DNA of 64,000 bases from Syntrophorhabdaceae bacterium (GTDB taxonomy: Bacteria; Desulfobacterota; Syntrophorhabdia; Syntrophorhabdales; Syntrophorhabdaceae), in the NCBI GenBank assembly GCA_963665295.1, contig OY762209.1, positions 4,672,001-4,736,000 of the forward strand, given 5' to 3'. Below are positions 45,055 to 61,098 of this stretch, one piece after another. The position numbers were made by a program, and so were the translations under genes. The first letter of the stretch is position 1. Every line of letters starts with the position of its first letter. The notes under the pieces are model-generated. The model was given only the letters and a program-made list of their open reading frames with translations. It was not told the origin of the DNA and did not search any database.

Positions 45055-46668
45055 TTACAGGCTTGCATAGATCTTCAACTGCTGCCGCGGATAAATCTGT
45101 GCCTTTTCAATGTTGTTCCACCTCATCACGTCCTTCGGGTATACATTGAACTTGTCCGATATCCCCGCCAGACTGTCACCTTTCTTTACCATGTATATAA
45201 GGGGCTTCTTCGCCTGAGTCCGGTAGACCGTGAGCGTCCGGCCTTCTCTTATGTCCAGTCCGTTCTTCAACCCGTTTCCTGCAATCACGTCCTTGGGCCT
45301 AACCCTGAAGCTCTGGCATATCTCCGTTATCGTATCCCCTTTCTTCACCTTGTAGACTACCGTATCCATAGCAACGGGCGGATATACCTTCAGTTTCTGC
45401 CCCAACACGACCCTCTGGTCCTTCATTTTGTTCCACTTCCTGATATCGTCCTTATCCACCTGGAACATGTCCGCCACCGTGGAAAGGCTATTGTTCTTCT
45501 TAACAACATAGATGAGGGGTTTTACCTCGGGCGTCTTTGTTCTTGCCGACGCCGCCACGCCTTTTCCTTTACTCACACCCTTGTGGACCGCTTCCGGAGA
45601 CCGGCGAGGCTCCCCCGCCCCCATGTCAGGCTCCGGCGACCTGTAACCGGCGAAAGCGGCGCTGATCTCAAGGATTTCATTTTGGTTTTCAAACCTTCGG
45701 AACCCGAACACCTCGGGATTGCTCCCAATCACTGCGGCAGCGATGACCTTGGGAGGATATTCCCTCGTTTCCTTTGCAAGACAGGTGCGAATGTGCCAGA
45801 AAGTTCTTTCTTCCATGGGATTGTCTATCCGTTTGAGGCACGATATGATCCTCCCTTCGCCGCAGTTATAGGCGGCGAGAGCAAGAAGAAAAGACCTCGG
45901 ACCGAAGATGGCGATCAGGTCGTGAAAGTATTCGACAGCGGCAAAGGTTGATTTTACCGGGTCCAGCCTGTCGTCAACACGGTCGGACACGCGAAGCGAA
46001 TACCTTTTGGCCGTACCCGACATGAACTGCCACATACCTACGGCCCCTGCATGGCTGCGGGCATTGGGGTTGAAACCCGATTCAAGGAACGCGATAAATG
46101 CCATGTCTTCCGGTATGTTCCTCTTTTTGAAGACCTCCTTCACGGCAGGCATATATCCTGCCGACCTTCTAAGGGAACTGTTCATGAACCGCCTGTACTG
46201 GTCGTTCGTCTGAAAGGCCTTCACGTAGAGCTTCACCTCGTTGAGAAAAACCGTTTCCACTTTATCGTCCTTTTCTCCGAACTCGCCGAGAAGCCGCTTA
46301 AGTTCCCGCTCAATCAGAGCGTCATGGCCCACCGTGGTGGCCCTGCCCAGGGAGCGTTCGTCAATCTGAATGCGGGGAAGGTCCCGGAAAGGGATATTGT
46401 CTTCCCTGCCGGCGAGGCCCGTCTGACTGCTCTTCCCATTGGCCACAGTCCTTTCCCCGGCAGGGCGGGCCATATCTTCCACACTGATCCTGTTCTCGCC
46501 CTGGCCGGAAGATACGGGACCCTTCAGTGCGTCTTCATGGGCCGACGCGACGGGCGCCTCACGCCTCCCCTGAACGCCGCTTACATAGGACATGGAGGTG
46601 CATGAGGCGCAGAGAACCACGAGTACTGCCGCGAAAGACAGCGTAATCACCTGTTTTGTTTTTTTCAT
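45055..46668 (-). CDS. MltD-like lytic transglycosylase lipoprotein with three LysM domains
   Basis: Lipobox-like CASC, LESGFNPNARSHAGAVGMWQFM, LAAYNCGEG, KETREYPPK, three LysM repeats. Confidence 0.9.
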   Translation of the reverse strand: MKKTKQVITLSFAAVLVVLCASCTSMSYVSGVQGRREAPVASAHEDALKGPVSSGQGENRISVEDMARPAGERTVANGKSSQTGLAGREDNIPFRDLPRIQIDERSLGRATTVGHDALIERELKRLLGEFGEKDDKVETVFLNEVKLYVKAFQTNDQYRRFMNSSLRRSAGYMPAVKEVFKKRNIPEDMAFIAFLESGFNPNARSHAGAVGMWQFMSGTAKRYSLRVSDRVDDRLDPVKSTFAAVEYFHDLIAIFGPRSFLLALAAYNCGEGRIISCLKRIDNPMEERTFWHIRTCLAKETREYPPKVIAAAVIGSNPEVFGFRRFENQNEILEISAAFAGYRSPEPDMGAGEPRRSPEAVHKGVSKGKGVAASARTKTPEVKPLIYVVKKNNSLSTVADMFQVDKDDIRKWNKMKDQRVVLGQKLKVYPPVAMDTVVYKVKKGDTITEICQSFRVRPKDVIAGNGLKNGLDIREGRTLTVYRTQAKKPLIYMVKKGDSLAGISDKFNVYPKDVMRWNNIEKAQIYPRQQLKIYASL

Positions 46669-46736
46669 CCGGACCTCCCGCCCGGTCGTTTTCTCCCGCG
46701 AGGGGGTGCAATTCGGCATATCGGGCTATATAATAA

Positions 46737-46761
46737 AGACGGATGTGGACACCGTTTTTCT
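46737..46761 (-). promoter_or_regulatory. Putative ECF promoter AGAA-N15-CCGTCT upstream of the mltD-like gene
   Basis: GAGAA AAACGGTGTCCACAT CCGTCT. Confidence 0.65.
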
Positions 46762-46781
46762 CACTCCCTTCCCCGGCTGGC

Positions 46782-48551
46782 CTACGGTGGGCCGCCGGTC
46801 CTGCCGTCAAGACCCGTGAGCGCCCTCGCGAGCACGTCTACAGCCATGGGGGCCGCCACTTCGCCCCCCTTGCCCTTGTTCTCTGCAATGACCGCAATGG
46901 CAAGGCGAGGATTACCGGCCGGGGCAAATCCGATGAACCACGAATGTGCCTTTTCGTCTCTTCCTGTCTCCGCCGTCCCGGTCTTTCCTGCCACGTGGAC
47001 TGCAACGGCACGGGGACCCGTTGGTTCCGTGGTATACCTTCCATTTTCGAAGTAGAGCTTCTTCACGTGTTTTCCCGTGCCTTCGAGCATAACCCTTTCC
47101 ATGAGGTTTCTCGCGGTTTTTGCGGTCGCCTCGCCTAGCGCCCTGTCCTTCATCACCACTGGACCGCCGGAGACCATCATTCTTTCCCCCCTTGCCGTCC
47201 TTATCTGACGCACCACATAGGGGTTCAGGACCCTGCCCCCGTTTGCCACGGTGGCCGCTACCATGGCCATCTGGAGCGGGGTCGCGGCTACAAGGTTCTG
47301 TCCTATGGAGCACTGGGCCACTATTCCCTTGTTCCTCGTAAAATCACGTTTCGTAAACGTGCGGAGCGTCTTCGTCCCCTCCTTGTTTTCATAGTAAGAG
47401 AAGGCAAGGCTCCTGGTGGCCTCGTATTTGTGTCCCTCTATCTGAGGGACCAGGTTCACGGGGTTGTTAAACCCCAACTTCACCGCATAGTCATACAACG
47501 CAGGCCCCATGGAAACCCCGATTTCACTGAAGAACGGATTGCATGACTGAATAAAGCCCTTTTCCAGGGTTACCGTGCCATGGCCGTGTTCTTTGTACTC
47601 GTCGGCAATATTATACTGATTCCTCCTTCCGTTGCAGAGGATGGAGAAATCCCGGCGCCCTTCATTTCCGTGGCCTGTATCGAGCCACGTAAGCATAACC
47701 ACGGTCTTGAAGGTGGACCCCAGGGGATAAAGCACGGAGAATGCCCTGTTTTCATAGAGCTTATCCTCCGTGTCCCTGACCACCCTGTCCCACATATGCC
47801 TGTCTCGGGTGTTGGGGTCATAGGAAGGGGCGCTCACCGCGGCGATCACCTCTCCTGTTTTTACGTCCATCACCACAATGGCGCCCTTCATTTTACCCAT
47901 GAGTTCGTAACCGTATCTCTGGAGTCCGCTGTCTATGGTGAGAAACACGTCGTCCCCGAGGACTATTCGCTTAAAAGGATTGCTCATGTCATGATATATG
48001 GGGTTATGTGCCCGTCCGGCCAGATAGGGATCCAACTCCTTCTCGAGGTTACGCACGCCGTAAACGGCATTAAAATGGCCTATGAGGGGAGAAAATTCCG
48101 GGCCGTAGGCATATTCCCTCTTCGTGGGAAAAAACTTGTCGTTAATCACCGTTTTGGTGAGAGGCACACCGCTGCGGTCAAAAAACGAGCCCCGCCATAC
48201 GATCTCCTCCTTCTTGGGGTTCGCCTTCGCGCAGAATTGAGTGTTGAACACCACCTTCCCGTCGGCCCCGAATAGTGCCCCCGAATTGATTGCCTGCCTG
48301 ACCTTTTCCGCCGTATCCCTGCTCAGCTTTCTCCGGCCCATGGCATCCTCGTCTATCCCTACCAGGCGACCGTTTACCACAAATACTCCATCACTCTCAA
48401 GGCCGGCCACGACCTCAACGAACCTCTTGTCTACGTACCGCGATGTAGCGTATTTCTTATTGTTGACGACCATACGGTCGAAAAGGAGGTATGCGACGAA
48501 AAGACCGCTGACGACCAATACGAGGGCAACGATCTTCATTCTGCCGTTCAT
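46782..48551 (-). CDS. Class B penicillin-binding transpeptidase, PbpA-like
   Basis: N-terminal TM; SxxK (GSTFK), SCN, KTGT motifs; IGQ..ATPLQMA. Confidence 0.9.
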   Translation of the reverse strand: MNGRMKIVALVLVVSGLFVAYLLFDRMVVNNKKYATSRYVDKRFVEVVAGLESDGVFVVNGRLVGIDEDAMGRRKLSRDTAEKVRQAINSGALFGADGKVVFNTQFCAKANPKKEEIVWRGSFFDRSGVPLTKTVINDKFFPTKREYAYGPEFSPLIGHFNAVYGVRNLEKELDPYLAGRAHNPIYHDMSNPFKRIVLGDDVFLTIDSGLQRYGYELMGKMKGAIVVMDVKTGEVIAAVSAPSYDPNTRDRHMWDRVVRDTEDKLYENRAFSVLYPLGSTFKTVVMLTWLDTGHGNEGRRDFSILCNGRRNQYNIADEYKEHGHGTVTLEKGFIQSCNPFFSEIGVSMGPALYDYAVKLGFNNPVNLVPQIEGHKYEATRSLAFSYYENKEGTKTLRTFTKRDFTRNKGIVAQCSIGQNLVAATPLQMAMVAATVANGGRVLNPYVVRQIRTARGERMMVSGGPVVMKDRALGEATAKTARNLMERVMLEGTGKHVKKLYFENGRYTTEPTGPRAVAVHVAGKTGTAETGRDEKAHSWFIGFAPAGNPRLAIAVIAENKGKGGEVAAPMAVDVLARALTGLDGRTGGPP

Positions 48552-49927
48552 CGTTCCTCCCCCGAAACCCGTATCGCTATTCCGGCCATTATGAAGCTTA
48601 TGACAATGGAACTGCCTCCGTAACTGCAGAAGGGCAGGGTAATTCCCGTGAGAGGGATTCCGTTCAGGTTTCCCGCGAGGATAATGAAGGACTGCACTGC
48701 GATCATGAGTGCGACGCCGACAGCGAGCATCCTCTTGTAGACATTGTTGTTCCTGAAGGCCCCGAGGATAATCCTGTGGAGTAGGACGGCGTATGCAAAG
48801 AGGAGGGAAAGACCCCCCATAAGACCCATTTCTTCACAGATAGCGGCAAAATTGAAATCGGACTGCACCTCAGGTATCCTGTGGGCAAGTCCGAAGCCGA
48901 TCCCATTCCCGAATATACCCCCTGTCGAGATGGACCACAAAACCGTTGTTATAGCCTCCCCTCTGCCGAAGGGATCGAGGAACATGTCTACCCTTTGCCT
49001 CAGGACGTGGGGAAAGTTCATCGTGTAACACGCCCAGCCCACGAAGGCAATGGCGGAAGCGACAAGGAGGGTAATATAGATCTTGTTACCTGCAAGGTGA
49101 AGCATTATAAAACAGACGACAAAGAGGAGGATGGTCGCCCCATAGTCGCCCTGGAGCACGGTCGGGCCTATTGCGAAGACGCATGCGAAGGCATAGGGAA
49201 TAGTATACCTGCACCACGTGAGGAACCTGCCCCTTCCATGAAAGGTAATCCCCTTCCCCTCGTTATAGAGGTACCCCGCAATAAAGAAGAGGACAAAAAG
49301 CTTTATGGGCTCTATCACCTGAAACCCGAAGAGCCAGAGTTTTCTTCCGTTTATGGTGGTGCCGAAAAACCATGTGACCGCAAAGAGCACCAATGAACAG
49401 ACTATCCACAGGTACCGTCTGCCGGACATCCAGGCGAAGAAAGATTTGCTGAAGACCTTTGTGGTAACTACGAGGGCGAGGACCCCCGCGGCGATATTCA
49501 CGAAGTGACTCGTTCCAAGTTGGGCGAGAGTTCGCACGTTGTCGGTCACCTTTGCCGAAGGGTTCGCGCCGACAATACCCTGCAAGGCATCGCTTCTCAT
49601 GATGGCAAGGTCGGGCGCCAGGCGGAGGATCATAATGAACCCTATGCCCGATATGAATGCCACGGTCGGCAGGACATAGGGGTCCGCCCCGGGGATGGCG
49701 ACCCTCAGATGAAAATGAGCCAACATGAATACGCTCACGAAAAGGGCAAAATAAAGGGCGTTCGGAATTGGGCTCAAGATGAGGGAGACAAGGTCCATGT
49801 CGCCGGATAGGGTTTTGACGGAAAAGGGCAAACCTCTCGTCACAAGGTGGTGGTGAAGGAGAAAGAACCCTAGCCCGAGGGACGTAAAGACCAGAAGAAG
49901 GTATTTCAGCTCAAGTGTGCGCCTCAT
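48548..49927 (-). CDS. SEDS peptidoglycan polymerase (RodA/FtsW family)
   Basis: Multi-TM; ADPYVLP, INGRKLW, QGDYG, SDFNFAAICEEMG, IPLTGITLPFCSYGGSS. Confidence 0.9.
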   Translation of the reverse strand: MRRTLELKYLLLVFTSLGLGFFLLHHHLVTRGLPFSVKTLSGDMDLVSLILSPIPNALYFALFVSVFMLAHFHLRVAIPGADPYVLPTVAFISGIGFIMILRLAPDLAIMRSDALQGIVGANPSAKVTDNVRTLAQLGTSHFVNIAAGVLALVVTTKVFSKSFFAWMSGRRYLWIVCSLVLFAVTWFFGTTINGRKLWLFGFQVIEPIKLFVLFFIAGYLYNEGKGITFHGRGRFLTWCRYTIPYAFACVFAIGPTVLQGDYGATILLFVVCFIMLHLAGNKIYITLLVASAIAFVGWACYTMNFPHVLRQRVDMFLDPFGRGEAITTVLWSISTGGIFGNGIGFGLAHRIPEVQSDFNFAAICEEMGLMGGLSLLFAYAVLLHRIILGAFRNNNVYKRMLAVGVALMIAVQSFIILAGNLNGIPLTGITLPFCSYGGSSIVISFIMAGIAIRVSGEER

Positions 49928-49953
49928 TGCTCTCCTTATTGTTTTATATAGGT

Positions 49954-49978
49954 AGACGGATAAACCCCGAAAACTTCT
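49954..49978 (-). promoter_or_regulatory. Putative ECF promoter upstream of rodA-pbpA
   Basis: AAGAA GTTTTCGGGGTTTAT CCGTCT. Confidence 0.65.
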
Positions 49979-50057
49979 TGGTCCCGTGTCTCTTTTTCAG
50001 CCGGATTCAAAGGAAATGTGAAGGAATTGCGTGTTACGTCCCGGGTGGGATTTCTCT

Positions 50058-52010
50058 TTAGCGCTCCTGACCGGTCATGGTTCCGCCGTAGTCATGTCCC
50101 AGTCTCGCCGCTATGCCGAAATCGGAGTCAGCCTCCATATGCCTGCCGAGCTTGTGATAGCAAGCACCCCGCCACCGGTAATCGACGTTGTTGGGCCGGA
50201 GCCTGATGGCATTGGTGAAATCATCGGCGGCCATGTAATAGTTGTTCAGCCGGAAATAGGTCACTCCCCGCCAGTGAAAATAGATATCCGCCGGTCTCAG
50301 CCTGATGGCATTGGTGAAATCCTTGAGGGCCCCCGGATAGCTGCCGACCCTGTAATACGCCACGCCCCGCCAGTAATAGCTCAACTCGTGGGAGGGGTTC
50401 AACTCAAGGGCACGGGAAAACTCGGCCACCGCTTGGAGAAACTGTTTATGTTTCAGGGATCGAAGGCCCTTCTGGTAATAATAGTCGGCCGAGGACCGCG
50501 GAGAGACCGGTGGCCTCCCTTCGTTCAGGGCCTGCGGTGCGGGCGCCGGTGCGACGGCGGTCTCCTGTTTCGTTTGTGTCTCTCGCGGCCCGGGCTCCGG
50601 TTCTTTCGGCTGCCACGGGACAGGCGCGGGCATCTCCGCTTTGCTTTCCTTTTCCGCGAAGCTGGTTGGGGGTGCGGGAGTAATCCTCACCGGGGTTTCG
50701 AGTTTCTTTATATTCATTGACCGGTGCGGAGCCGCGGCAGCCTTGGGCGGCGTCGCCGGTTTCGCTTTAGCGGAAGGTACTGGCGGAAGAGTCGGCTTTG
50801 CCTGTTCGACTGCCCGTTTTTCCTTTTCGGCAGCATCCCTCGCTTTCCCGGCTTCCTCCTCCTTCCTCGCGTCGGCATCCCTTTGCGCCTCTTTGCGCTT
50901 CTGTTCCAGATCCTGCCTTTCTTTCGCTTCCTTCTCCCGCTGCGTCACCATTGCCGTATGATATCGGCCAGTGTCGGGCTGCCAGTTCCGGTATACCACG
51001 TAACCGGCGGCCGCACCTGCGAGGACAAGGAAGACTATCACCGCACAGGTGACCACCTTGAATCCTTTCCTTCCTTCCGGCTCCCCCGCCTTCTCCCGAG
51101 CGGGTCCCGCCCCCCGGGTGGTCCCGCCATGGCTCGGTTCATTTTCCACTTCTCTCCTGAGATCGTCGGAAAGGGCCTTGATACTCTGATAACGCTGCTC
51201 GACCCTCGGAGCCACCGCCTTCTTGTAGATGCTGTCCATACCCTTTGGAGCGGACCGGTTAAGCTCGCTCGGGCAAAACGGTCCTATGGTGCTGTCCAGC
51301 GTAAAAAGTTCATAGAGGACCACGCCTGTTGAGTATATATCCGTCCGATGGTCCACCTCGGGACTGCCGGACTTCAGTTCGGGAGACATGTAGGGGGATA
51401 CGCCGAAAGGGGTACTCACGGCAGTAAGGTCCCGGAGGTTGAGTATCTTCGCAATCCCGAAATCGGCCAGCTTAACCGAAAGGGTCGCCTCGTCGGTAAC
51501 AAGGATATTTTCCGGTTTTATATCCCGATGTATCACCTTCTCCTTGTGGTCATGGGCGTAGGTGAGGGCAGCGGCGATCTGGGAAATAACCCTCAGGGCC
51601 TCTTCGGCGCTAAAGGGATTGTTGATCTTTCTCCTGTCGTTTATGAGGTCCCTGAGATTTCTCCCTTCGACCCATTCCATAAGAAGGTAGTGCCATACAA
51701 CCCCGTTCTCGTCTTCCCACTGGTCGTCATGATAGATCCTGACGATGTTCGGGTGGTGCAACACATCACGGGAAATGGACGCTTCGTGCTGGAATCGCTC
51801 TATCGCGTCCTTCGAGTCCAGGAGCCGTGGCTGCATAAGCTTGAGGGCGACGTCCCTCAACCTCGAATGCCTCGTATCCCTGCATTTGTAGACCATCCCC
51901 ATACCGCCCATCTTGCCTTCCGACAAAATCTCGTAACGGTTGTGTATCAGGGTGCCTACAGGGAATAAGCCCTTAAAACCCTGGTCTTCTTTTATCGCAG
52001 TGGGCGCCAT
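50058..52010 (-). CDS. Membrane Hanks-type Ser/Thr kinase with coiled-coil/Pro-rich linker and C-terminal TPRs
   Basis: GGMGMVY, VALK, HRDIKPEN, DFG, YMSPE, DIYSTG; TM helix; TPRs (FTNAIRLRP repeats). Confidence 0.92.
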   Translation of the reverse strand: MAPTAIKEDQGFKGLFPVGTLIHNRYEILSEGKMGGMGMVYKCRDTRHSRLRDVALKLMQPRLLDSKDAIERFQHEASISRDVLHHPNIVRIYHDDQWEDENGVVWHYLLMEWVEGRNLRDLINDRRKINNPFSAEEALRVISQIAAALTYAHDHKEKVIHRDIKPENILVTDEATLSVKLADFGIAKILNLRDLTAVSTPFGVSPYMSPELKSGSPEVDHRTDIYSTGVVLYELFTLDSTIGPFCPSELNRSAPKGMDSIYKKAVAPRVEQRYQSIKALSDDLRREVENEPSHGGTTRGAGPAREKAGEPEGRKGFKVVTCAVIVFLVLAGAAAGYVVYRNWQPDTGRYHTAMVTQREKEAKERQDLEQKRKEAQRDADARKEEEAGKARDAAEKEKRAVEQAKPTLPPVPSAKAKPATPPKAAAAPHRSMNIKKLETPVRITPAPPTSFAEKESKAEMPAPVPWQPKEPEPGPRETQTKQETAVAPAPAPQALNEGRPPVSPRSSADYYYQKGLRSLKHKQFLQAVAEFSRALELNPSHELSYYWRGVAYYRVGSYPGALKDFTNAIRLRPADIYFHWRGVTYFRLNNYYMAADDFTNAIRLRPNNVDYRWRGACYHKLGRHMEADSDFGIAARLGHDYGGTMTGQER

Positions 52011-52028
52011 ATGGTCTCTTTGATGATA

Positions 52029-52823
52029 TCACAAACTCAACCCCTTGTGGAGCATAAACCTTCGTTTCATGCCGGAGAAGAGCCGGGAAAAGGGTCCGGG
52101 CGCCTCCACCACGATGACGGAAACATTGTCGGGCGCGCCCCTCAGAAGTGCCATATTGACGAGGACCTTGCACTTCTCTTCCGGGCCGATCTCTTTCACA
52201 AGCACCTCCCTCGCCTCGTCCGGGCTCACCACACGGAAAAGGCCGTCGGAGGAAAGGAGGTAGATATCCCCGTCCTTCACCAAATGGGCGCTCAAATCGG
52301 GTGTCGTGTTTTCAGACGATCCAAGGGCCCTTGTGAGAACGTGGCTCAGGCTATGGTTTTCCTCCTTTTCGGGGTCAAGGACGCCCGCCTTCACGAGGTC
52401 CCGCGCTTCGGTATGATCTTCGGTGAGTTTCTCCATGCATTTTCTTCTCAGGCGGTATATGCGGCTATCTCCTATGTGGGCGATATAGAGCTTGCCGTTG
52501 GTAAAATGGGCGGAGGAAAAGGTCGTACCCATGACCTCGCCCCTGGCATACTCGTATATCTCCCGGTTGGCAGTAGATACGGCCTCCCTGATGATGCTCA
52601 GCACGGGCTCATCCTGCTTGAGCGACTCGTTGTCATAGGAGGTGATATTCTGATGGATCACCGCGGTGACGGTGGTCACTGCCTTTCTGCTCGCCACTTC
52701 TCCCTTTGCATGTCCGCCCATGCCGTCGGCCACGACATAAAGCATGATCCCATGGTCCAGGACAATGGCGTCCTGGTTCATCTCCCTCTCGACGCCCCTG
52801 TCCGTTATGCCGAAAGCGTCCAT
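52029..52823 (-). CDS. PP2C-family Ser/Thr phosphatase (PstP/Stp1-like)
   Basis: REMNQD, VADGMGGH, MGTT, HIGDSRIY, SSDGL, DNVSV. Confidence 0.93.
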   Translation of the reverse strand: MDAFGITDRGVEREMNQDAIVLDHGIMLYVVADGMGGHAKGEVASRKAVTTVTAVIHQNITSYDNESLKQDEPVLSIIREAVSTANREIYEYARGEVMGTTFSSAHFTNGKLYIAHIGDSRIYRLRRKCMEKLTEDHTEARDLVKAGVLDPEKEENHSLSHVLTRALGSSENTTPDLSAHLVKDGDIYLLSSDGLFRVVSPDEAREVLVKEIGPEEKCKVLVNMALLRGAPDNVSVIVVEAPGPFSRLFSGMKRRFMLHKGLSL

Positions 52824-52826
52824 GGC

Positions 52827-53228
52827 CTAGTTGCTCTCCACTTTCATGGAATAGTCGCAAAACCCTATTTCGTCCCCCGGCATGAGTTCAAATTCCGGGG
52901 AGGTCATCCTCCGGTTCTTCGTCACCGGTTGCCCTGAAAGACTCCTGAAGAAGAGTGTGTTCGTTGCGAGGAGTTCGCCCGCCACTACAGGTATTCCCGC
53001 GCCTTCGAGAAGGATGTCACACTCGTTGCCCCTGCCGATGCGGTACCGGCCCTTCCCTACAGGTATTCTCCGGAACAATACCCCGCCTTTCCGGACGCTC
53101 AGGAAAAGTTCTGCCCTTTTTAACGGCGAAGGCCTTCGCACCGAACCGGCGAAGAGCAGGAGGGCAACAAAACCCAGGGACGATGAAAACACCAGGTTGA
53201 GAAGCATTATCTCCTTCGGGGAAAACAT
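52827..53228 (-). CDS. Membrane-anchored FHA protein (FhaB-like), degenerate
   Basis: N-terminal TM then IGRGNECDILL...LMPGDEIGF; SxxH absent. Confidence 0.7.
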   Translation of the reverse strand: MFSPKEIMLLNLVFSSSLGFVALLLFAGSVRRPSPLKRAELFLSVRKGGVLFRRIPVGKGRYRIGRGNECDILLEGAGIPVVAGELLATNTLFFRSLSGQPVTKNRRMTSPEFELMPGDEIGFCDYSMKVESN

Positions 53229-53229
53229 G

Positions 53230-54075: not shown

Positions 54076-54115
54076 GGTCTCCTCCTCCTGTCTCGAATAT
54101 TGACTCTGTTATATA

Positions 54116-54140
54116 AGACGGAAGGAGGACCGGCTTTTCT
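54116..54140 (-). promoter_or_regulatory. Putative ECF promoter upstream of fhaA
   Basis: AAGAA AAGCCGGTCCTCCTT CCGTCT. Confidence 0.65.
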
Positions 54141-54202
54141 TACGCGATCTCTCGTAAATTCAGGGCGGTCGGGAATCCCGCTGCACACCTTGTCCGGACC
54201 TT

Positions 54203-54631
54203 CTACTTCTCCGGGTCGTCGGCCCCCTCTTTCTTGCTTTTGCCTTTCTTCGGTCTCGTAATGTCTCTCGGGACGGCCGCGTATGCCATGGGGGTGGGGG
54301 TGGATTCGCCGGAGGCGCTCCCCGTCTTCCTTGCGGGCCGCTCCAGGGGTCTTATCTTTCTGTCTCCGGCCCCTTCGCCTCCGGCTTCCCTGAGCATTTC
54401 CTCGATGCCCGGAGGCAGGTGGCGAACCTTCTTTTCGTCGAAAGATTTCATGTGCTCGTCAAGGCTTTCGAGGAGCCTCTTTCCTTCCCTGTAGCCGGGG
54501 AGCACTTTTCGATACACCGCCAGTTCGCGAATCGCCTCGCTGCATTCCCTGCAGGCGCCTATATGCATCTTTGCTTCCTCGCCGGCATTTCCTTCGAGGA
54601 ATCTCAAGAGGTCTTCATCATTACATTTCAT
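54203..54631 (-). CDS. Soluble zinc-binding anti-sigma factor (ZAS-like)
   Basis: KCNDEDLLRFLEG..HIGACREC (HxxxCxxC); follows the sigma gene; no TM. Confidence 0.75.
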   Translation of the reverse strand: MKCNDEDLLRFLEGNAGEEAKMHIGACRECSEAIRELAVYRKVLPGYREGKRLLESLDEHMKSFDEKKVRHLPPGIEEMLREAGGEGAGDRKIRPLERPARKTGSASGESTPTPMAYAAVPRDITRPKKGKSKKEGADDPEK

Positions 54632-54642
54632 CTCTTTCTCCT

Positions 54643-55224
54643 TTAAATGGACTCGCTCAAGCTTTTCAGTTCGCCCATAGTGGCAAGCTTCTTCAGGCAG
54701 TTCACGATGTTCCCGTATATGGTCTTCGAGTTTTTCTTAAGCACGTTGGCCAGTTCCTCGTAAGTTCCGTATACACCCTCAAGGTATTGCAGATAACCGT
54801 TGATAAGCTCCTTGCATTTTTCGGGGAGCTTGTTGACTGCGTCTCTTACCCGGGAGGCGACATCGATCATATAGAGGACATCGATGAGGTTCCTGTCGTC
54901 CGCGATGGCCGCCTGGTCGTCGATGGAGACGACAATCGTCTGGGGATGATTTCTCCGGTAATGATTGGTTATCTCATTTCTCAAGACCCATTGGGCATAA
55001 CCCCTTATTTCCCTTATTTCCTCGATGTCCCGCCGGTGGACCCTCTTGATCAGGGCGGCGATCGCCTCGGCCGATATATCCTCCACTTCTTCATCCGAGA
55101 GACGCCATTCCTTCCACCTGCATGCCTTAAGGAATTTGTTGTACATATAGGTCCACGCGCCCCGGTCGTTCCTCTTCAGTTCTTCGTACAGCTTTTCGCT
55201 TTCCATGGACTCATATTCTTTCAT
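54643..55224 (-). CDS. ECF-type RNA polymerase sigma factor
   Basis: Region 2 DRGAW..EEVEDISAEAI..YAQWVLRNEITNHYRR; region 4 AVNKLPEKCKELI..YEELANVL; start ATG 55224. Confidence 0.85.
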   Translation of the reverse strand: MKEYESMESEKLYEELKRNDRGAWTYMYNKFLKACRWKEWRLSDEEVEDISAEAIAALIKRVHRRDIEEIREIRGYAQWVLRNEITNHYRRNHPQTIVVSIDDQAAIADDRNLIDVLYMIDVASRVRDAVNKLPEKCKELINGYLQYLEGVYGTYEELANVLKKNSKTIYGNIVNCLKKLATMGELKSLSESI

Positions 55225-55268
55225 ACCCGGTCCCCCCGGTTGGGCTTGTCGGCCATTTATCCCCCTCT

Positions 55269-56087
55269 CTAAAATATTCTGTCTCCCTGCCGGGAGTTCT
55301 CCATAATCTTCTTCCTCGCCCATTTCTCCATGTCGCCCTGAATGAGGTCGTAGTCCAGGCAAAGTTCGAAAAGGGCGTCCCTCATCTCCCGTTTGCCCGC
55401 TTCCCTCAGGAGGGCATTTACTTTCTCCCACCCGTAGAGGGGACTATTTACCATGCATTCCACTACGCATGCCGCCTCGGCATAGGCGAGCCTTCTCCCC
55501 GCTTCCGTCTCCATGACCAGATTCCCCGGCCTTTCAAGCTCTTCGAGGAGAAGAACCGGCCCCCTCTCCCCCATCGCCTCCCGAAGGGCATCGAGATAGG
55601 AGTCGGGAAGCTCCTGGGAAAGATAGACGCTTAAACCTTCGTCCAGCCAGAACGGGCAGCGGCCCCGTCCTATTTCGTGGACCGCGAGGTGTATGATTTC
55701 GTGGGTGAGGTAGATGTAAAACGACTGTGTTTCTTCCTCGTCGTCCTCCTCCGATACGATAGTTATCTCCCCGTCAAAGAAACCCGCCGCCCACGAACCG
55801 CAGGCGTTCTTGCGATCGCCTTCACGGAGCGCCTCTTCGCCGGACCGGTAGACGTTTACCCTGATATCGGTAAGTTCGTGTCCGAGTTTGTCGCGTACTA
55901 TCTTCTGCGTCCTCTTTATCGTCCGGAACAGGTTGATAATATCGAGTTTCTCGTGCTTCAAATGAAAATTGACCCTTATTCCGTGCTGGGTCAACCGCAC
56001 AAGGTCGTCTTCTCCGATATAGGTAGACCTGTTTTCCTGACGGACGATCGATTTGACTTTTCTGAAGATTCTTTCCTCTTCGTCCAT
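55269..56087 (-). CDS. Cytoplasmic zinc metallopeptidase (MA clan, gluzincin-like)
   Basis: THEIIH (HExxH) followed by PFWLDEGLSVY; no signal peptide. Confidence 0.8.
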   Translation of the reverse strand: MDEEERIFRKVKSIVRQENRSTYIGEDDLVRLTQHGIRVNFHLKHEKLDIINLFRTIKRTQKIVRDKLGHELTDIRVNVYRSGEEALREGDRKNACGSWAAGFFDGEITIVSEEDDEEETQSFYIYLTHEIIHLAVHEIGRGRCPFWLDEGLSVYLSQELPDSYLDALREAMGERGPVLLLEELERPGNLVMETEAGRRLAYAEAACVVECMVNSPLYGWEKVNALLREAGKREMRDALFELCLDYDLIQGDMEKWARKKIMENSRQGDRIF

Positions 56088-56161
56088 TACATATCTCCGT
56101 GTTTCACCTGCAAGACCCTGTCATCCGGCACCTCACGCCGGACTTACCCCACGTCCCACGG

Positions 56162-57373
56162 TCAGCCGAATAATCCCCGCTTAACCTCACTTATGTCTTT
56201 GAAGCGCTTTTCTCTTTCCTTTTCGATGCACCTGCCTATCACCCGACTCATGGTCTCCGGAAAAGGGGCGACCATTTCGCGCGTTATCCCGTCGCCTTCT
56301 ACCCTGCCCCCCAGCATTTCGTAGAATACGACACCCAGAGAGTAAATATCGTCCCTCTCGTCCACATCATTGAAGTCCTCCCGCTGCTGTGGCGACGTAT
56401 AGGGTACATTATAGCCCCGGAAGCCGGGGGGCGGCATAAAACCGCCGGTCTTGTCCAGTGCCAGCCCGAAGTCTATGATTTTCAGGCCTACGGGCGAAGA
56501 TGAATGGTCGACCATGATATTCCTCGGGTTGATGTCCCTGTGTATCACGCGCTCCTTGTGGATGTATTCGAGGGCGCTCAATATAAGACGGGCCGTTTCC
56601 CTGAACCGGCCAATGCCGTAAGGCGTTTTCCGGATCACATCATAGAGGGACCCGCCCTCGATATACTCGAGCACGATGTAATAGTCGCCATCTGCGACGC
56701 CGTAATCGAACCCCTTTACCACGTTCGGGTGGTCGAACCTTTCCGTGAGGAGCTTTCCCTCGTTCCGGAAGAGGGCGGTCAACGTCTTCGCTGTCGCATA
56801 CCGCTCGAGCTTTTCGAGCATGAGGTACTTGAAGGCCACCGGCCTGCTGTCCGAGCGCCTCATCCCCTTCAGTATCCGCGCCATCCCGCCCTTGCCTATC
56901 TCCATATCAAAGACCACATATTTCTCGTCGAAGGCACCGGGTTTCTCTTTGGACTTATCGTAGACGGTCCTTAACCGCCCGATCGCTTCATAAAGCTTCA
57001 CCTCTTCCCCGGGGGTCAGCTTCGGGTCGTAATACGCGGTAGGATCATGGTCAAGAAGCTTTCTGAACCCGAGCTTATTCGTAACCCGCCGGAGCTTGTT
57101 GCGGACCGACTGATCCTTTTCGCCGCGCCAGAGGTCCTTTACTAAAATCTCATCCACTTCTTTCCCATCATCGATGAGTTTAAGGAGGTGGACTGCCGCG
57201 TCCTCGCGCAGTTCGGGGTCGGCATTGGTCCTTATGATCTCGTAGCAGGCCTCGGGTAACGCGGCCACGGGGACGACCGACGCCGATGCAACTACCCGCT
57301 CAGCCGGGTCAAGGAGTTTCGTTTCGTTCTCCCCCGCAACCCTGTCCTTTTCCCTGAAAGATCCTTCTGTCAC
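56162..57373 (-). CDS. Soluble Ser/Thr kinase with helical (HEAT-like) N-terminus
   Basis: GKGGMARI, VAFK, HRDINPRN, DFG, DIYSLG; no TM. Confidence 0.88.
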   Translation of the reverse strand: MTEGSFREKDRVAGENETKLLDPAERVVASASVVPVAALPEACYEIIRTNADPELREDAAVHLLKLIDDGKEVDEILVKDLWRGEKDQSVRNKLRRVTNKLGFRKLLDHDPTAYYDPKLTPGEEVKLYEAIGRLRTVYDKSKEKPGAFDEKYVVFDMEIGKGGMARILKGMRRSDSRPVAFKYLMLEKLERYATAKTLTALFRNEGKLLTERFDHPNVVKGFDYGVADGDYYIVLEYIEGGSLYDVIRKTPYGIGRFRETARLILSALEYIHKERVIHRDINPRNIMVDHSSSPVGLKIIDFGLALDKTGGFMPPPGFRGYNVPYTSPQQREDFNDVDERDDIYSLGVVFYEMLGGRVEGDGITREMVAPFPETMSRVIGRCIEKEREKRFKDISEVKRGLFG

Positions 57374-57389
57374 GCCCGTCTCTCCACGC

Positions 57390-58733
57390 TCAATTCTGCT
57401 CCATTACCCTGCCCGAGCATTTCGGGCACCTGTACATGGCTGCCCGGTCCCCGGCTTTTACGCTGAAGGCGGTATTGCAGCCTGGATTCACGCACCTGAG
57501 TGTCACGAAATCATCGTCCCGGCTTTCCTCCGCCGCGTCCCTTTTTCCGGGCGACGAAGGCTCCCCGTAGATGGTCCCCGCTTCCGGCGCGGCCTGCCCC
57601 GTCGGGACTCCTGTAGCCCTCGGGAGGCCGGCTTCAATCTCCTTTTCTCTGAGTCTCATTTCGAGTTGTTCTTTTTCCCTGAAGAGCTCGTTCTCAATGG
57701 CGTCCCGGTCCTTTTTCTTCTTGAGCTCGATTAAAGCCCCCATGGCCTTCAGGTTGCTTTCCTCTTTGAGACCGGTCATTTCTATCTCCGCAAGGTTTTT
57801 CACCTTTTGATCGGCTATTTCGTTTTCGAGACGCAACCTCTCTATCCCCGCCTCCACCTCGATCACCGCGTACCTCGCTTCCGCGACCTCACGGTCAATC
57901 CCCGCCTTTCCCAGGAGCTTCCTCCGTTCGTAGTCAAGTTCCTGGTCAAGCTCCAGTTTGCGGATTATCCAATCCCTTTTCGTCTTGCGGTCCATGTCCC
58001 GCTCTTCGAGGGCCGCTTTCAGGTCTTCAAGTTCCCGGCTTCTGAGGAGCTTCGCCTTTTCCTCTTCGAGGAGGTACTCCTCGATCTTATCGTCGGACAG
58101 AGACAGGTCTCCGAGGAGAGAAAGGGTCTTACGTCTCATGAGAATCCTTTTCTCAAGCTCCTTCGCTTCCACCTCGTCCATCTCGTTGCGGATGAACCCC
58201 TTTTCCTCCGCATCGATCACACCGGAATAATTCCTGAAGTCGTACTCCACCGACTTCAACTCGTTAAGGTAAAGCCCCGCTGCGTCGAGGGTATTCTTCA
58301 GGTAATGTTCCACCCGCACCTCGAATTCCTTCCTCAGCCCGGAGCCGGCGCCATCACTCTCAAGCTCTTTTATGGATCTCTTGCCCAGCATGTCGCGAAA
58401 TGCATTGTACACCCCTTCCCGGAGGAAATCATGCAACTCATTCGTCCCCGGGGCGTCCTCCCCGTGTGCGACATGCTCGAGGAACCGGTCCCGTTTCACG
58501 ACAAGAACCACAATGCGGACGGTTACATCTATCTTTACCGGGTCCACGGTGCGCACATCTTCGAGGTGAAACGTAAGGGGTATGAGTTCTCCCGCGTATT
58601 CCTCCCCGGCGACAAAGTCCTCCCTCACCAGTCCTACATCGACACGGAGTACGGACCGGCAGTTGCTGCAATACCGCGCTTCCCGGTCTACCTTCACCCC
58701 GCACCGGGGGCAACGTTCCGCCTCTTCTCTCAT
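57390..58733 (-). CDS. Zinc-ribbon/SPFH(band 7)-like/coiled-coil protein
   Basis: CPRC..YCSNC, SPFH-like core (LKNTLDAAGLYLNEL), long coiled coil, C-terminal CVNPGC..CPKC. Confidence 0.65.
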   Translation of the reverse strand: MREEAERCPRCGVKVDREARYCSNCRSVLRVDVGLVREDFVAGEEYAGELIPLTFHLEDVRTVDPVKIDVTVRIVVLVVKRDRFLEHVAHGEDAPGTNELHDFLREGVYNAFRDMLGKRSIKELESDGAGSGLRKEFEVRVEHYLKNTLDAAGLYLNELKSVEYDFRNYSGVIDAEEKGFIRNEMDEVEAKELEKRILMRRKTLSLLGDLSLSDDKIEEYLLEEEKAKLLRSRELEDLKAALEERDMDRKTKRDWIIRKLELDQELDYERRKLLGKAGIDREVAEARYAVIEVEAGIERLRLENEIADQKVKNLAEIEMTGLKEESNLKAMGALIELKKKKDRDAIENELFREKEQLEMRLREKEIEAGLPRATGVPTGQAAPEAGTIYGEPSSPGKRDAAEESRDDDFVTLRCVNPGCNTAFSVKAGDRAAMYRCPKCSGRVMEQN

Positions 58734-58810
58734 GTTCTCACGTTCCGTGCAAAACGGGGCATTTCCCTCTGTCCACGACACCTCTCCAGCCCATGGCATT
58801 TCATCTACTC

Positions 58811-59809
58811 CTAATATTGTACTCTTCTCAGCTTCAAGTCGCCATCCACTTTTAGTACTCCTGCCCTTAAAGCGCCTATTTCCGGGCCCACATCGTCCGG
58901 ACAGGGCGATGATGCCATGCGGCAAATCCTTTCGGACAAACGCTCCAGGTCTTCCAGCTTCCAGAATATTTCCATGTCAAAACACACGGCGCCGGAAGAC
59001 CCGCGCCGACTGTCCAAACCCGCGCCGCCGGGGGGAGCCTTCGCCACGGAACGCTTCATTTCCATGAGGTTTCTCTCTATGTCCTTAAGCTCCACCGCGA
59101 CCCTGGTCTGTCCCGTTTCCACGAGCCTCGATTTCGCCTCCGACACGTGAACAATGATCTTGTCGATCTCTCCTGTCACACCTTTCCTGTTACCCCCGAC
59201 TCCTTCGAAAATCCTCGCCCCTCCGCTTCGTCTTCCACGCTTCAAATTAAGGAAAAGGAGGAGACAGAGGACAAGGAGAAGCGCCGCGGCCGGTATGCCC
59301 CAGATCACATACTTTCTCAAGGGCGATACAGCAGAGACCTCGAAATCCCGGGACAGGACTATTTCACCTTTTTCCACGTCCACAAGCTTTACATGAGCCT
59401 TTACATGGTATGACATAAACCCCGCCCGGGAGCGGTATACGTCACCCGTGAGAAATCCCTGGACCCCTTTCAGCCTTCCGTGCCGGACCCTCGTATTTCC
59501 GTCCATAATGTCCTTGAGCTGAAGACCCTGCTCCGCGAGGACCCTGTCAAAGTCCGCCCGCTCCATGACCTTGCAGGATGTCCTTTCTTTAATGGCGGAT
59601 ACTATCCCGTTCTTCACCATATTGTTGTCGCCCTTGAAATCGAGTACTGCCATGCGGCTCATCTTCCTGTCAACAGGCAATGCCTTCACCACTGCTTCCT
59701 GAAGGCTGTTCATGGCCTGTGACTGGAGGGTCTCCGCAAGACAGGAGGAATACCAGATAAAGGCCATAACCGCGCCCGCGAGAATGCCTATAACCGCGTG
59801 TCTTCTCAT
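58811..59809 (-). CDS. CsgG/HfaB-like exported domain, TM helix and cytoplasmic helical domain
   Basis: Signal peptide, MAVLDFKG, VMERADFDRVLAEQGL, GRLKGVQGFLTG, VKLVDVEKGEIV; TM WGIPAAALLLVLCLLLF. Confidence 0.7.
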   Translation of the reverse strand: MRRHAVIGILAGAVMAFIWYSSCLAETLQSQAMNSLQEAVVKALPVDRKMSRMAVLDFKGDNNMVKNGIVSAIKERTSCKVMERADFDRVLAEQGLQLKDIMDGNTRVRHGRLKGVQGFLTGDVYRSRAGFMSYHVKAHVKLVDVEKGEIVLSRDFEVSAVSPLRKYVIWGIPAAALLLVLCLLLFLNLKRGRRSGGARIFEGVGGNRKGVTGEIDKIIVHVSEAKSRLVETGQTRVAVELKDIERNLMEMKRSVAKAPPGGAGLDSRRGSSGAVCFDMEIFWKLEDLERLSERICRMASSPCPDDVGPEIGALRAGVLKVDGDLKLRRVQY

Positions 59810-59941
59810 GTCAACACCCTCCCGGACCATATGACGGGTCTTCGCCGCAAATCCGCCATAGAATTAGATGATAAGTAAAACGGAATACAAAAACAATCAA
59901 ATACGAAAAACCGTTGCTCTGCCCCGCACAAAGGTATGTAT

Positions 59942-60874
59942 TCATTTTTTCTTCTGCCCTCCCGAAAGGGATTTCATCGTTTTCGACGCGAGGATTGCCG
60001 ACGCCTTTCCTATGGCGTCCGTTCCTGATTTCTTCTCGTTGCTCCCGAAACCCAGCACATCCCTTACCGCGAACGATCCCGCCCCTCCACGAGCTTTATA
60101 CACGCGGATTGTCCCTTCGGCCCGCGAGGAATATATCTGTCTCGTCTCCTCGCTGAACACGGCTCCTACCCTTCCTTCAACTACGGCGCTTACGAGAAAA
60201 TAGACGAGAAACCGGTCCACAGCCTCGGCATCGCCGGAATGGAGAGCAGGCAGAACACCTCCCGAATGGCCGTCGGTCAACGCTCCCGGATCCACCCTCC
60301 CGTATCCCTTCTTGATTGCCAGGGATGCAAGGTGACGGTCCAGGGTTCGGCTGTCGGATGGTTTCCCGTCCCACCTGTCCGACGTAATTATGATCACCCG
60401 TTTTGCGAGAGGAAGTCCCCTGATAAGAATGTCCTCCGCACGGTCCCTTGCGAGCTTTGTCTTCATAAAGACCGTATACAGGTCCGGTTCGGGCTGCTGT
60501 TCGCCCGTTATCTCTGTTTCCGTGAGAATAGAACCCTTTTTCGGTATGAGGATCCTGAGAACCGTTTCCTTTTCCCGGGAGAGCACCACCGGATGAATCA
60601 ACGGTCGTACCGCTTCGATAAGGGCATTCCGTTGTGCATCTTCCACGGCTCTCACCCGCGCATGGGGTCCGTTTTCCCCCTGCCTCACCCGCGCTTTCCC
60701 TTCGACGGTGACCGTTTCAGGAACCAGATGGGAACCTCCGGGACTCTGAACAAAAACCTCTTGCCCGACGTTCGCCCGGCACAGGGCAAAATAACCGGTA
60801 CACAGGAATAAGGCCACCGTCAGAATAACCCGGAACCTCAATCCCTTACTTCTTGATTTCTCGTCCATGCTCAC
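59942..60874 (-). CDS. Exported protein with FlgT-N/LPP20-like domain
   Basis: Signal/TM, VTVEGKA..ARVRAVEDAQRNALIEAV. Confidence 0.6.
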   Translation of the reverse strand: MSMDEKSRSKGLRFRVILTVALFLCTGYFALCRANVGQEVFVQSPGGSHLVPETVTVEGKARVRQGENGPHARVRAVEDAQRNALIEAVRPLIHPVVLSREKETVLRILIPKKGSILTETEITGEQQPEPDLYTVFMKTKLARDRAEDILIRGLPLAKRVIIITSDRWDGKPSDSRTLDRHLASLAIKKGYGRVDPGALTDGHSGGVLPALHSGDAEAVDRFLVYFLVSAVVEGRVGAVFSEETRQIYSSRAEGTIRVYKARGGAGSFAVRDVLGFGSNEKKSGTDAIGKASAILASKTMKSLSGGQKKK

Positions 60875-60966
60875 GCCCTTTGAAGTCTTTATGGATATCC
60901 GCGGAGGCGCCTGAGGGTCGGCAACCCCATCGCCCCTTTCCTCCGGAACTTCCGCTCTTAATGAGA

Positions 60967-60991
60967 AGACGGTTTAGTCCCCTGTTTTTCT
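60967..60991 (-). promoter_or_regulatory. Putative ECF promoter at the head of the operon that contains the sigma gene
   Basis: GAGAA AAACAGGGGACTAAA CCGTCT. Confidence 0.65.
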
Positions 60992-61098
60992 CGAATTATT
61001 CTTTGATTGGTGGTTACAGCTTTGAACAGAAGAAAAGGTGTGGAAAATTCCCCAATGATGCTTATAGTCTTTATAAAACCACGAAGGAGGCGTTCAAA

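Follow-up and report, generated by a model that had tools for sequence, protein, structure and literature searches.

A rare, mobile gene cassette with an FHA-linked RodA/PbpA pair and a predicted ECF-type promoter: a candidate wall-repair regulon of diderm bacteria

The window analyzed here, a stretch of 64,000 nucleotides from a Syntrophorhabdaceae bacterium, carries a cassette of wall-synthesis, signaling and envelope genes that we regard, on balance, as probably a horizontally spread and inducible wall-repair regulon. The catalytic motifs of its enzymes are intact, its genes are co-inherited, and its sub-operons share a promoter motif. Repair of the wall is the most likely role judging from the sequence. 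The gene content is listed below, with coordinates in window positions, or in the numbering of the host contig (C1) for genes beyond the window.

C1:4738501-4739310, beyond the window: secreted repeat gene, promoter site at C1:4739479
C1:4737446-4738396, beyond the window: second fhaA, promoter site at C1:4738290
63698..64000, minus: 3' end of a double-FHA gene (579 aa; whole gene C1:4735698-4737437)
60967..60992, minus: predicted ECF-type promoter P1, RAGAAAA-N14-CGTCT, upstream of the flgT-like gene
59942..60868, minus: exported FlgT-like protein, 308 aa, FlgT_N-like plus alpha/beta domain (ESM Atlas 0.91-0.96)
58811..59809, minus: inner-membrane LpoB/CsgG-fold protein, 332 aa, with signal peptide, periplasmic LpoB-like domain, TM helix and cytoplasmic four-helix bundle
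57390..58733, minus: soluble Zn-ribbon/SPFH/coiled-coil/Zn-ribbon scaffold, 447 aa, shorter than most homologues
56162..57373, minus: soluble Hanks-type Ser/Thr kinase with a conserved ~150-aa N-terminal domain, no TM (VAFK, HRDINP, DFG)
55269..56087, minus: soluble HExxH metallopeptidase of the MA clan, adjoining the ECF gene in 5 genomes
54643..55224, minus: ECF sigma factor, 193 aa, the genome's sole member of its family
54203..54631, minus: soluble zinc-binding HxxxCxxC anti-sigma candidate with a conserved C-terminal A-x-P-x-D-x-T motif
54116..54141, minus: predicted ECF-type promoter P2, upstream of fhaA
53230..54075, minus: FhaA (FhaA_N/DUF3662 plus FHA), GR, SxxH and N motifs intact
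52827..53228, minus: TM plus degenerate FHA (FhaB/FipA-like), GR kept, SxxH missing in 9/9 aligned
52029..52823, minus: soluble PP2C phosphatase, 264 aa, no TM segment
50058..52010, minus: receptor Ser/Thr kinase with kinase domain, TM, coiled/Pro-rich stalk and periplasmic TPR, no PASTA
48548..49927, minus: SEDS peptidoglycan polymerase, FHA-linked RodA family, with intact PEVQSDFNF (catalytic Asp) and SYGGS motifs
46782..48551, minus: PbpA-type class B PBP, PBP_dimer_2 plus transpeptidase, SxxK, SxN and KTG intact
46737..46762, minus: predicted ECF-type promoter P3, upstream of the lytic transglycosylase gene, outside the set used to spot the motif
45055..46668, minus: MltD-like lytic transglycosylase (SLT plus 3 LysM), probable lipoprotein, catalytic Glu motif intact
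44212..44238, minus: sixth promoter-like site, spacer 15, upstream of moeA, membership uncertain

From the flgT-like to the lytic transglycosylase gene, the 14 minus-strand ORFs at 45055-60868 are separated by gaps of -4 to 132 nt; all are real, and they stand in the order given by the first-pass annotation. Pfam and NCBIfam profile matches comprise SLT with three LysM, Transpeptidase with PBP_dimer_2, FTSW_RODA_SPOVE, Pkinase with TPR, PP2C, FhaA_N (53.6 bits, cut-off 25) with FHA (44.6 bits), ECF TIGR02937 (59.3 bits, cut-off 42.9), a second kinase and CsgG (27.9 bits, cut-off 20.8), and the Peptidase_MA_2 match of the HExxH gene falls below its cut-off. Three labels have weaker evidence: TM-FHA (a weak Yop-YscD match, E 0.0013), SPFH (homologues pass the Pfam Band_7 cut-off with E 1e-7 and 3e-9; the window protein aligns with them and has no Band_7 match of its own) and FlgT-like (some ESM Atlas clusters labelled FlgT_N/FlgT_M/CsgG, and a weak FlgT_N match in one distant homologue, the G353 counterpart). 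The window FlgT-like protein is without the C-terminal ~70 aa found in 5/7 aligned sequences. The unit is larger than first described, extending past the window end through the double-FHA gene, the second fhaA and the secreted repeat gene; the two FHA genes are also neighbours of the G056 locus.

By sequence comparison, the SEDS/PBP pair belongs with the family of FHA-linked RodA/PbpA pairs known from Actinobacteria and Chloroflexota and not with housekeeping RodA or FtsW. In a quick tree (midpoint root, no bootstrap), the cassette SEDS clusters among FHA-linked SEDS from Actinobacteria, Rubrobacter and Chloroflexota and is separate from mre RodA and dcw FtsW; the branch that unites it with the actinobacterial and Chloroflexota SEDS has an SH-aLRT of 97-98. 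The PBP gene has a PBP_dimer_2 match of 31.1 bits (cut-off 27) and no PBP_dimer match, and comparison of its profile to solved structures places PbpA among the best (E 3e-50), with MrdA at 5e-45 and chains named FtsI at 8e-21. SEDS branch and PBP profile comparison agree on the kinship to the actinobacterial fhaA-pstP-rodA-pbpA-pkn locus proposed in the first-pass annotation. That annotation would have given up its reading had the pair been the genome's only housekeeping RodA-PBP2 or FtsW-FtsI; its SEDS is found on a separate branch and both genes lie outside mre and dcw, and no gene of either cluster adjoins the pair. Mycobacteria can grow without RodA, yet RodA guards them against wall damage, according to the accessible part of 10.1101/2021.10.26.465981, and Table S10 of PMC12516126, so far as accessible, contains four Thermodesulfobacteriota PBPA_dimer enzymes. 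The synthase pair and FhaA are the most constant genes across loci. A lytic transglycosylase or amidase recurs across related loci; the lytic transglycosylase itself is present in 3/15 loci of one comparison, mostly short contigs, and its G054 orthologue lies on a separate contig with the promoter still kept.

The host is diderm, as first supposed, judging from its one Omp85/BamA gene. Separate mre and dcw clusters had been expected; both exist, mre at C1:3.325-3.331 Mb and dcw at C1:0.200-0.217 Mb, but the FtsW and FtsI slots of the latter hold non-catalytic remnants. The identity of the ftsW-slot protein was settled by fold search alone, comparison with the FtsW profile giving a probability of 5%. 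The FtsW remnant occurs in 94/96 class genomes. In the host class the only FtsW/FtsI kept are catalytically inactive, and we found no description of them in the literature searched (most subscription papers lie outside it). The genome has two SEDS and two class B PBP genes, namely the mre pair and the cassette pair, and this count, together with the dead dcw slots, would fit a cassette pair that acts as the septal synthase in place of FtsW-FtsI; for Deinococcales, the accessible part of PMC12516126 proposes that PBPA_dimer enzymes may take the place of FtsI. We consider such a replacement very improbable. The cassette is not found in 92/96 class genomes and so is not a general replacement, its SEDS being present in only 4/96 against 94/96 for the FtsW remnant; this distribution excludes a class-wide solution. 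Moreover, G482, G301 and G353 have the cassette in addition to an intact dcw FtsW, and four class A PBPs are available in the host genome.

The two halves of the cassette, the FHA/kinase/RodA-PbpA module and the ECF and envelope genes, were to be abandoned as one system if they never occurred together in other genomes. They do occur together: the SEDS, LpoB/CsgG-like and ECF genes mark the same 4/96 host-class genomes, and the halves make up one unit. The co-occurrence table leaves out six metagenome loci, L027-L032, of which L027, L029 and L032 are housekeeping dcw loci; the FHA-SEDS-PBP locus of G059, of a different, long-branch type, was also left out. The cassette SEDS is found in 4/401 of the phylum sample and 1/301 in the phylum of G482, and reshuffled copies occur in one Nitrospira MAG and in metagenomes. 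The contig scan, with a single protein as query, yielded only 2 loci (one was an mre locus with no relation to the cassette), and the cassette's range across GTDB is therefore under-sampled. Since the GC content of the locus (0.549) equals that of the genome (0.547), there is no compositional sign of recent transfer. Taken together, the cassette is, by its distribution, a rare, mobile accessory unit and not a lineage trait. This bears on the possibility of a developmental switch, in which the wall is remodelled for a dormant or shape-changed state, as with SpoVD/SpoVE in spore formers. Switches of this kind are built from just such parts, a dedicated sigma factor, kinases and a spare SEDS-bPBP pair, and the accessible part of PMC12516126 draws a SpoVD/SpoVE-type parallel for Streptomyces. 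However, G055 is without the locus while close relatives of the same genus have it; a mobile accessory trait fits better, and we find a developmental role improbable.

Control by the ECF sigma factor, proposed earlier, gained support from a predicted ECF-type promoter, newly found here, that is shared by several sub-operons. It suggests that one stress sigma factor may switch the whole set on. The P1-type site also precedes the flgT-like orthologue of G056, and TGCATAAA-type sites precede other orthologues. Both motifs were spotted in, and then counted over, the same upstream regions; read in this way, 5 of the 12 genome-wide sites of the window-type motif lie on one strand within 22.6 kb (0.014 expected), and related loci spanning 167 kb hold 18 sites of the TGCATAAA-type motif, compared to 0.26 in shuffled sequence and a single site over 375 kb of dcw loci. 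In G045, about half of the motif matches lie away from related genes and seem fortuitous; viral contigs gave at least 119 matches, probably chance hits too. The motif lies directly upstream of the ECF gene in G054, G045 and G301 and at the head of the ECF operon in the window, so placed that the putative promoter would be autoregulatory, common to the ECF gene and regulon genes. Across loci, the -35 box co-varies with the sigma-4 recognition helix. Neither promoter pattern was found in the distant G353 locus.

The anti-sigma candidate has the ZAS motif HxxxCxxC, with the histidine and both cysteines invariant in 4/4 aligned homologues, and the G353 counterpart of the metallopeptidase is fused to FHA-TPR. 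To our knowledge, phospho-activated ECF sigma factors are without the acidic region-2.2 motif; the cassette sigma keeps it as EVED/DPED. FHA, PP2C or CsgG gene context appears for none of the ECF groups listed in the accessible part of the PMC7826278 supplement.

PASTA domains are present in 0/13 receptor-type kinases scanned, and the NF033483 match covers the kinase domain only, below cut-off. The fhaA, TM-FHA and PP2C genes were not found on the G054 contig. The outer domains of the 13 kinases vary, with FGE-sulfatase in 6 and TPR, DctP or a PQQ propeller in others, and two receptor kinases per locus are frequent. Caspase-domain genes lie beside the G045, G482, L025 and G353 loci. Such variable receptors, the caspase-domain genes and the patchy, mobile distribution could indicate a cell-contact or attack response, in which receptor kinases recognize competitors, predators or parasites, the kinases, caspase-domain proteases, SPFH protein and four-helix bundle run a defence, and wall synthesis is one output. 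We rate this as rather unlikely, considering that the window and G056 loci have no caspase gene, that PADLOC gives only generic kinase and PP2C domain matches plus one weak capP match in an L026 neighbour gene, and that the most constant genes are the synthase pair and FhaA. The helix bundle of the LpoB-like protein matches NLR CC and MLKL domains structurally with Z 8-12, values common for any helical bundle, and this likeness was set aside as generic. Observations that count against repair include the caspase-domain genes, which repair does not explain, the variable gene content among loci, and the G353 locus with no promoter of either pattern.

The first-pass annotation had labelled the protein CsgG-like. 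Modelling indicates an inner-membrane LpoB-fold protein and not a pore: a C-terminal TM helix, a cytoplasmic bundle, short strands and a compact LpoB-fold domain. The structure model, built from 6 sequences (pLDDT 72), has LpoB as its best match (Z 10.2, rmsd 3.7, 123 aligned), followed by GNA1162 (Z 7.4) and PelC (Z 7.3), and a second comparison yields an rmsd of 5.4 Å to LpoB and 10-13 Å to CsgG. CsgG, which may nonetheless be kin, is absent from the best 50 structural matches listed. The family is discrete (75 clusters, 12 with Pfam LpoB); the fold is also common to GNA1162, PelC, CsgG, TolB-N and FlgT, and alone does not specify function. The TM anchor, short strands and poor CsgG fit set the protein apart from the CsgG curli channel, an outer-membrane lipoprotein with pore-forming beta-hairpins. 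FlgT, CsgG, PelC and SPFH folds form rings in other systems. Their presence here, with the recurrent lytic transglycosylase or amidase, would be expected if the module cut and rebuilt the wall locally to install its own envelope-spanning structure of CsgG-like, FlgT-like and SPFH rings, as first envisaged. The TM anchor and LpoB fold speak against this reading, and the core loci have no recognizable gene for an outer-membrane channel, a secretion ATPase or a filament; we see little chance that it is correct.

For the wall-repair regulon, the following mechanism can be proposed. The soluble zinc anti-sigma would keep the ECF sigma inactive, and the neighbouring metallopeptidase, FHA-fused in one relative, may free it in a phosphorylation-dependent manner, upon which the sigma would transcribe every sub-operon, its own included, from the shared promoter. 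An envelope insult would be sensed by receptor kinases with interchangeable periplasmic domains, with PP2C reversing the signal. FhaA-type readers and the SPFH scaffold could then assemble the parts at a membrane patch, where the lytic transglycosylase would trim damaged glycan and the SEDS-PbpA pair would, without MreB or FtsZ, polymerize and cross-link new wall. The LpoB-fold and FlgT-like proteins may be periplasmic partners, possibly activators, of the synthase. A further-reaching idea, which we offer tentatively, is a complete, portable third peptidoglycan-building machine for diderms, MreB/FtsZ-independent, in which swappable receptor kinases and a peptidase-released ECF sigma turn on a SEDS-PbpA synthase; a new LpoB-fold regulator would activate this synthase through the inner membrane, and the SPFH scaffold would position it. 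Where FtsW-FtsI is dead, the machine could double as an emergency synthase for the septum.

Some anaerobic Gram-negative bacteria would, on the repair reading, gain a spare wall-building pair together with dedicated kinases, a wall-cutting enzyme and envelope proteins. In Actinobacteria the FHA-linked RodA/PbpA pair is bound up with polar growth, and its own role is difficult to single out. In the cassette the pair travels self-contained with its own sigma, predicted promoter and candidate regulators, and therefore its inducer, partners and activation are directly testable. An LpoB-fold protein that activates a SEDS-bPBP pair, if that is its role, would represent a novel type of wall-synthase regulator, and the matched change of -35 box and sigma-4 helix offers a natural test case of ECF promoter recognition.

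No description of the full cassette architecture was found in the literature searched, which left most subscription papers outside. The actinobacterial fhaA-fhaB-pstP-rodA-pbpA-pknA-pknB locus has the same families in nearly the same order (Actinomyces and Tsukamurella reference loci), including FhaA_N plus FHA, a PBP_dimer_2-type PBP and a SEDS of the same branch. The cassette differs in its diderm hosts, in being rare and mobile rather than a conserved core locus (4/96 class genomes), in having no PASTA kinase (0/13) and a degenerate FhaB-like FHA, and in its soluble PP2C of 264 aa, whereas actinobacterial PstP is membrane-anchored (~470 codons in Actinomyces). Its extras are the ECF/anti-sigma pair with the predicted promoter, the MA peptidase, the SPFH, LpoB-like and FlgT-like proteins, the lytic transglycosylase and additional FHA genes. 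LpoB is an outer-membrane lipoprotein that activates a class A PBP; the cassette protein, in contrast, is predicted to cross the inner membrane once and to carry a helix bundle in the cytoplasm, and its gene is linked to a SEDS-bPBP pair. Similar to the cassette, the clostridial 'FtsW-PbpB(P1)' of PMC8136486, in its accessible part, and the Monoglobus locus place an FHA gene right before a non-housekeeping SEDS-bPBP pair; the clostridial SEDS falls in the same broad branch, on a long branch of unsure placement. The one clostridial locus seen has no annotated kinase, phosphatase, sigma or envelope genes, all of which the cassette has. The divisome of Clostridioides difficile, in the accessible part of PMC10693644, is likewise without a catalytic FtsW-FtsI and has class A PBPs available; unlike it, the present host is diderm and keeps conserved non-catalytic FtsW/FtsI in the dcw cluster. 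ECF43, 59-62, 217, 267 and 283, as far as the accessible part of PMC7826278 covers them, have an ECF sigma among Ser/Thr kinases, as in the cassette; these kinase-associated groups are typically without an anti-sigma, whereas the cassette has a soluble zinc anti-sigma candidate.

The minus strand carries fourteen co-oriented genes at 45055-60868, ordered as read in the first-pass annotation, within a genome that is one contig and 98% complete; a BamA-type gene in this genome agrees with the outer-membrane host proposed there. Family scans identified SLT with LysM, a transpeptidase with a PbpA-type dimerisation domain, a SEDS protein, two Hanks kinases, PP2C, FhaA_N with FHA, an ECF sigma factor and a CsgG-like domain. 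The SEDS protein, the PBP, the lytic transglycosylase, both kinases, the PP2C and the peptidase all retain intact catalytic motifs. The small TM-FHA protein lacks SxxH in 9/9 aligned sequences, which argues that it probably does not bind phosphothreonine. An insertion at 61047-63603 splits the unit and contains small ORFs without known identity, a SpoIIAA-like gene and a rhodanese-ThiF (MoeB-like) gene, whose ORF ends at 62047 with coding-like sequence going on in another frame. At the same place G056, a cassette-bearing genome of the class, has an unrelated gene.

This genome has SEDS and class B PBP genes in two copies each, one pair being that of mre and the other that of the window, which is accessory. 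In a quick, midpoint-rooted tree of 68 rows, the window SEDS forms its own clade (SH-aLRT 100), separate from mre RodA and dcw FtsW, and this clade nests with SEDS of actinobacteria, Rubrobacter and Chloroflexota (SH-aLRT 97). The best solved relatives of the PBP profile include PbpA, ranking above MrdA and FtsI. The SEDS clade comprises ~41 protein clusters at 43-94% identity, and one homologue at 70% identity is labelled Syntrophorhabdaceae by its source. Window-type SEDS occur in 4/96 class genomes, in 4/401 phylum genomes (two distant forms among these) and in 1/301 genomes of the phylum of a Nitrospira MAG. The copy in G054, of the same genus, falls outside the window copy's group in the tree, which suggests that the two were acquired separately.

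A different locus with an FhaA fragment, SEDS and PBP, on a long branch (L013/L014/L038, G059:C118), has HerA/FtsK-like ATPase, vWA, trypsin, zinc-ribbon and amidase_3 genes downstream, and ECF, GHMP kinase, radical SAM and ATP-grasp genes upstream. A conserved ~102-aa hydrophobic gene with its own ECF-type promoter lies directly 5' of SEDS in three related loci and was not seen in the window:
L009:9477-9785, ~102-aa hydrophobic gene
L011:12035-12343, ~102-aa hydrophobic gene
L023:949-1281, ~102-aa hydrophobic gene

The envelope/ECF genes (flgT-like to anti-sigma) and the fhaA-to-transglycosylase genes form one unit. Their expected co-occurrence was recovered on one contig, in varying order, in the Nitrospira MAG, the genomes G054 and G056 and three metagenome loci (L021, L022, L026); in G045, also of the class, the halves are on separate contigs. 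The LpoB/CsgG-like and ECF genes are present in the same 4/96 genomes as SEDS, by profiles built with three of these four, G045 not being used. A distant locus, G353, has the same families at 34% identity: FlgT_N, CsgG with DUF4384, ECF, FHA-fused peptidase, FhaA, SEDS, PBP and two kinases. Source contigs equal in size to that of an LpoB-like row carry 7/41 SEDS rows, a hint of further co-occurrence.

BLAST counts in 15 related loci, picked for their SEDS, many of them short
PBP: 13/15
FhaA: 11/15
PP2C: 10/15
Receptor kinase: 10/15
FlgT-like: 7/15
LpoB-like: 6/15
SPFH: 6/15
ECF: 5/15
Lytic transglycosylase: 3/15

Beyond these counts, the ECF, anti-sigma, peptidase and transglycosylase genes were found on the Nitrospira contig.

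Upstream regions of related genes share the motif TGCATAAA-N14/15-CGTC, whose layout is that of an ECF promoter. It has 18 sites in 167 kb (15 related locus sequences), all on the sense strand (18/18), compared to 0.26 in shuffles (n=100) and 1 in 375 kb of dcw loci. With one further site on another G054 contig counted in, 15/19 are followed by a ribosome site and start codon. Sites lie 5' of fhaA, flgT-like, LpoB-like, transglycosylase and second fhaA genes and of the ECF gene itself, and the G054 transglycosylase, on another contig, retains its site. The window and G056 have RAGAAAA-N14/15-CGTCT instead. Five of 12 genome-wide sites of this type fall within one 22.6-kb strand (0.014 expected); with the two discovery sites removed, P is ~5e-7 for an interval drawn afterwards. 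The sigma-4 helix covaries with the box, being TIYGNI in both RAGAAAA genomes and TISS or TISA in four genomes of the other type, these being two related groups and not independent cases. Across the insertion at ~61.0-63.6 kb, promoter sites carry the unit on past the window, where it takes in a double-FHA gene, another fhaA and a gene for a secreted repeat protein. Neither pattern was found in G353; a sequence close to the window type but with a 13-nt spacer, 5' of fhaA (L034:17500-17760), was not counted. The secreted repeat protein, encoded at L004:4502-5311 (C1:4738501-4739310) behind the regulon promoter, is rich in Trp and Tyr, bears a PQGQHMQ repeat at its C terminus and has no Pfam match. 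A sixth promoter-like site, at 44212-44238, lies 5' of moeA and of a same-strand radical SAM gene downstream of moeA (span 41226-44173); it was not seen in related loci.

The dcw cluster (G000:C1:200602-216579) is complete with its order kept. Its ftsW slot holds a 261-aa membrane protein with a SEDS fold (Z 20.1 to FtsW, 255 aligned), but 21/21 sequences lack both SYGGS and the loop with the catalytic Asp. The 347-aa protein in the ftsI slot (TM, remnant and PASTA) has PASTA as its only match, one that matches the PASTA of FtsI; PGSxxK and KTG are absent in 19/19. The ftsW-slot protein is conserved in 94/96 class genomes, both remnants are present in 20/20 dcw clusters fetched (L042-L061), and 83/96 class genomes have a single SEDS match. 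FtsW and FtsI are conserved in non-catalytic form across the class, and septum formation in these diderms must proceed by another route. The cassette was considered as a general replacement and rejected, because it was not found in 92/96 genomes and FtsW is intact in three carriers. Four class A PBPs are encoded in the genome, which parallels the precedent of C. difficile, where class A PBPs are available to a divisome without FtsW-FtsI (PMC10693644). Between rsmH and the mur/ftsW genes, three metagenome dcw clusters (L027, L029, L032) showed no ORF of ftsI size.

Behind its signal peptide, the 'CsgG' protein has an alpha/beta domain of ~130 residues, then a transmembrane helix and, on the cytoplasmic side, a four-helix bundle. 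The domain best matches LpoB (Z 10.2) and fits CsgG poorly, so the protein is no curli-type pore. The protein belongs to a discrete family of 75 clusters, with Pfam LpoB in 12. The FlgT-like label is based on Atlas neighbours. The soluble SPFH protein is similar to Band-7/zinc-ribbon proteins that PMC11237479 ties to envelope stress.

Given the observed gene content, motifs, co-inheritance and promoter motif, an inducible wall-repair module is the best-supported reading of the cassette. The kinases would sense, the sigma factor would be released, the SPFH protein may act as a scaffold and the LpoB-fold protein could activate the synthase. A repair role is favored because mycobacterial RodA, while dispensable for growth, guards against wall damage (10.1101/2021.10.26.465981). 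The main rival, a contact- or attack-response system, draws on the variable receptor domains and on caspase genes at related loci. Receptor-kinase outer domains differ between loci, with FGE-sulfatase in 6/13 scanned and also TPR, DctP and PQQ propeller; none of the 13 has PASTA. Exported caspase-domain (Peptidase_C14) genes, at most three per locus, adjoin four related cassettes (L011, L016, L025, L035); none flanks the window locus.

The claimed kinship with the actinobacterial fhaA-fhaB-pstP-rodA-pbpA-pknA-pknB locus stands: the core works alike and shares its ancestry with that locus. In contrast to it, the cassette has no PASTA kinase, no membrane-anchored PstP and no core status in its hosts. 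PMC12516126 describes PBPA_dimer enzymes as mainly from actinobacteria and Bacillota, with four Thermodesulfobacteriota rows in a table. Kinase-linked ECF groups are typically without an anti-sigma, according to PMC7826278, and PMC8136486 mentions an unstudied clostridial SEDS-PBP pair; the passages of PMC12419801 yielded nothing pertinent. Our literature search found no description of the cassette's architecture. The new parts are the ECF regulon with its promoter, and the module of LpoB-like, FlgT-like and SPFH proteins.
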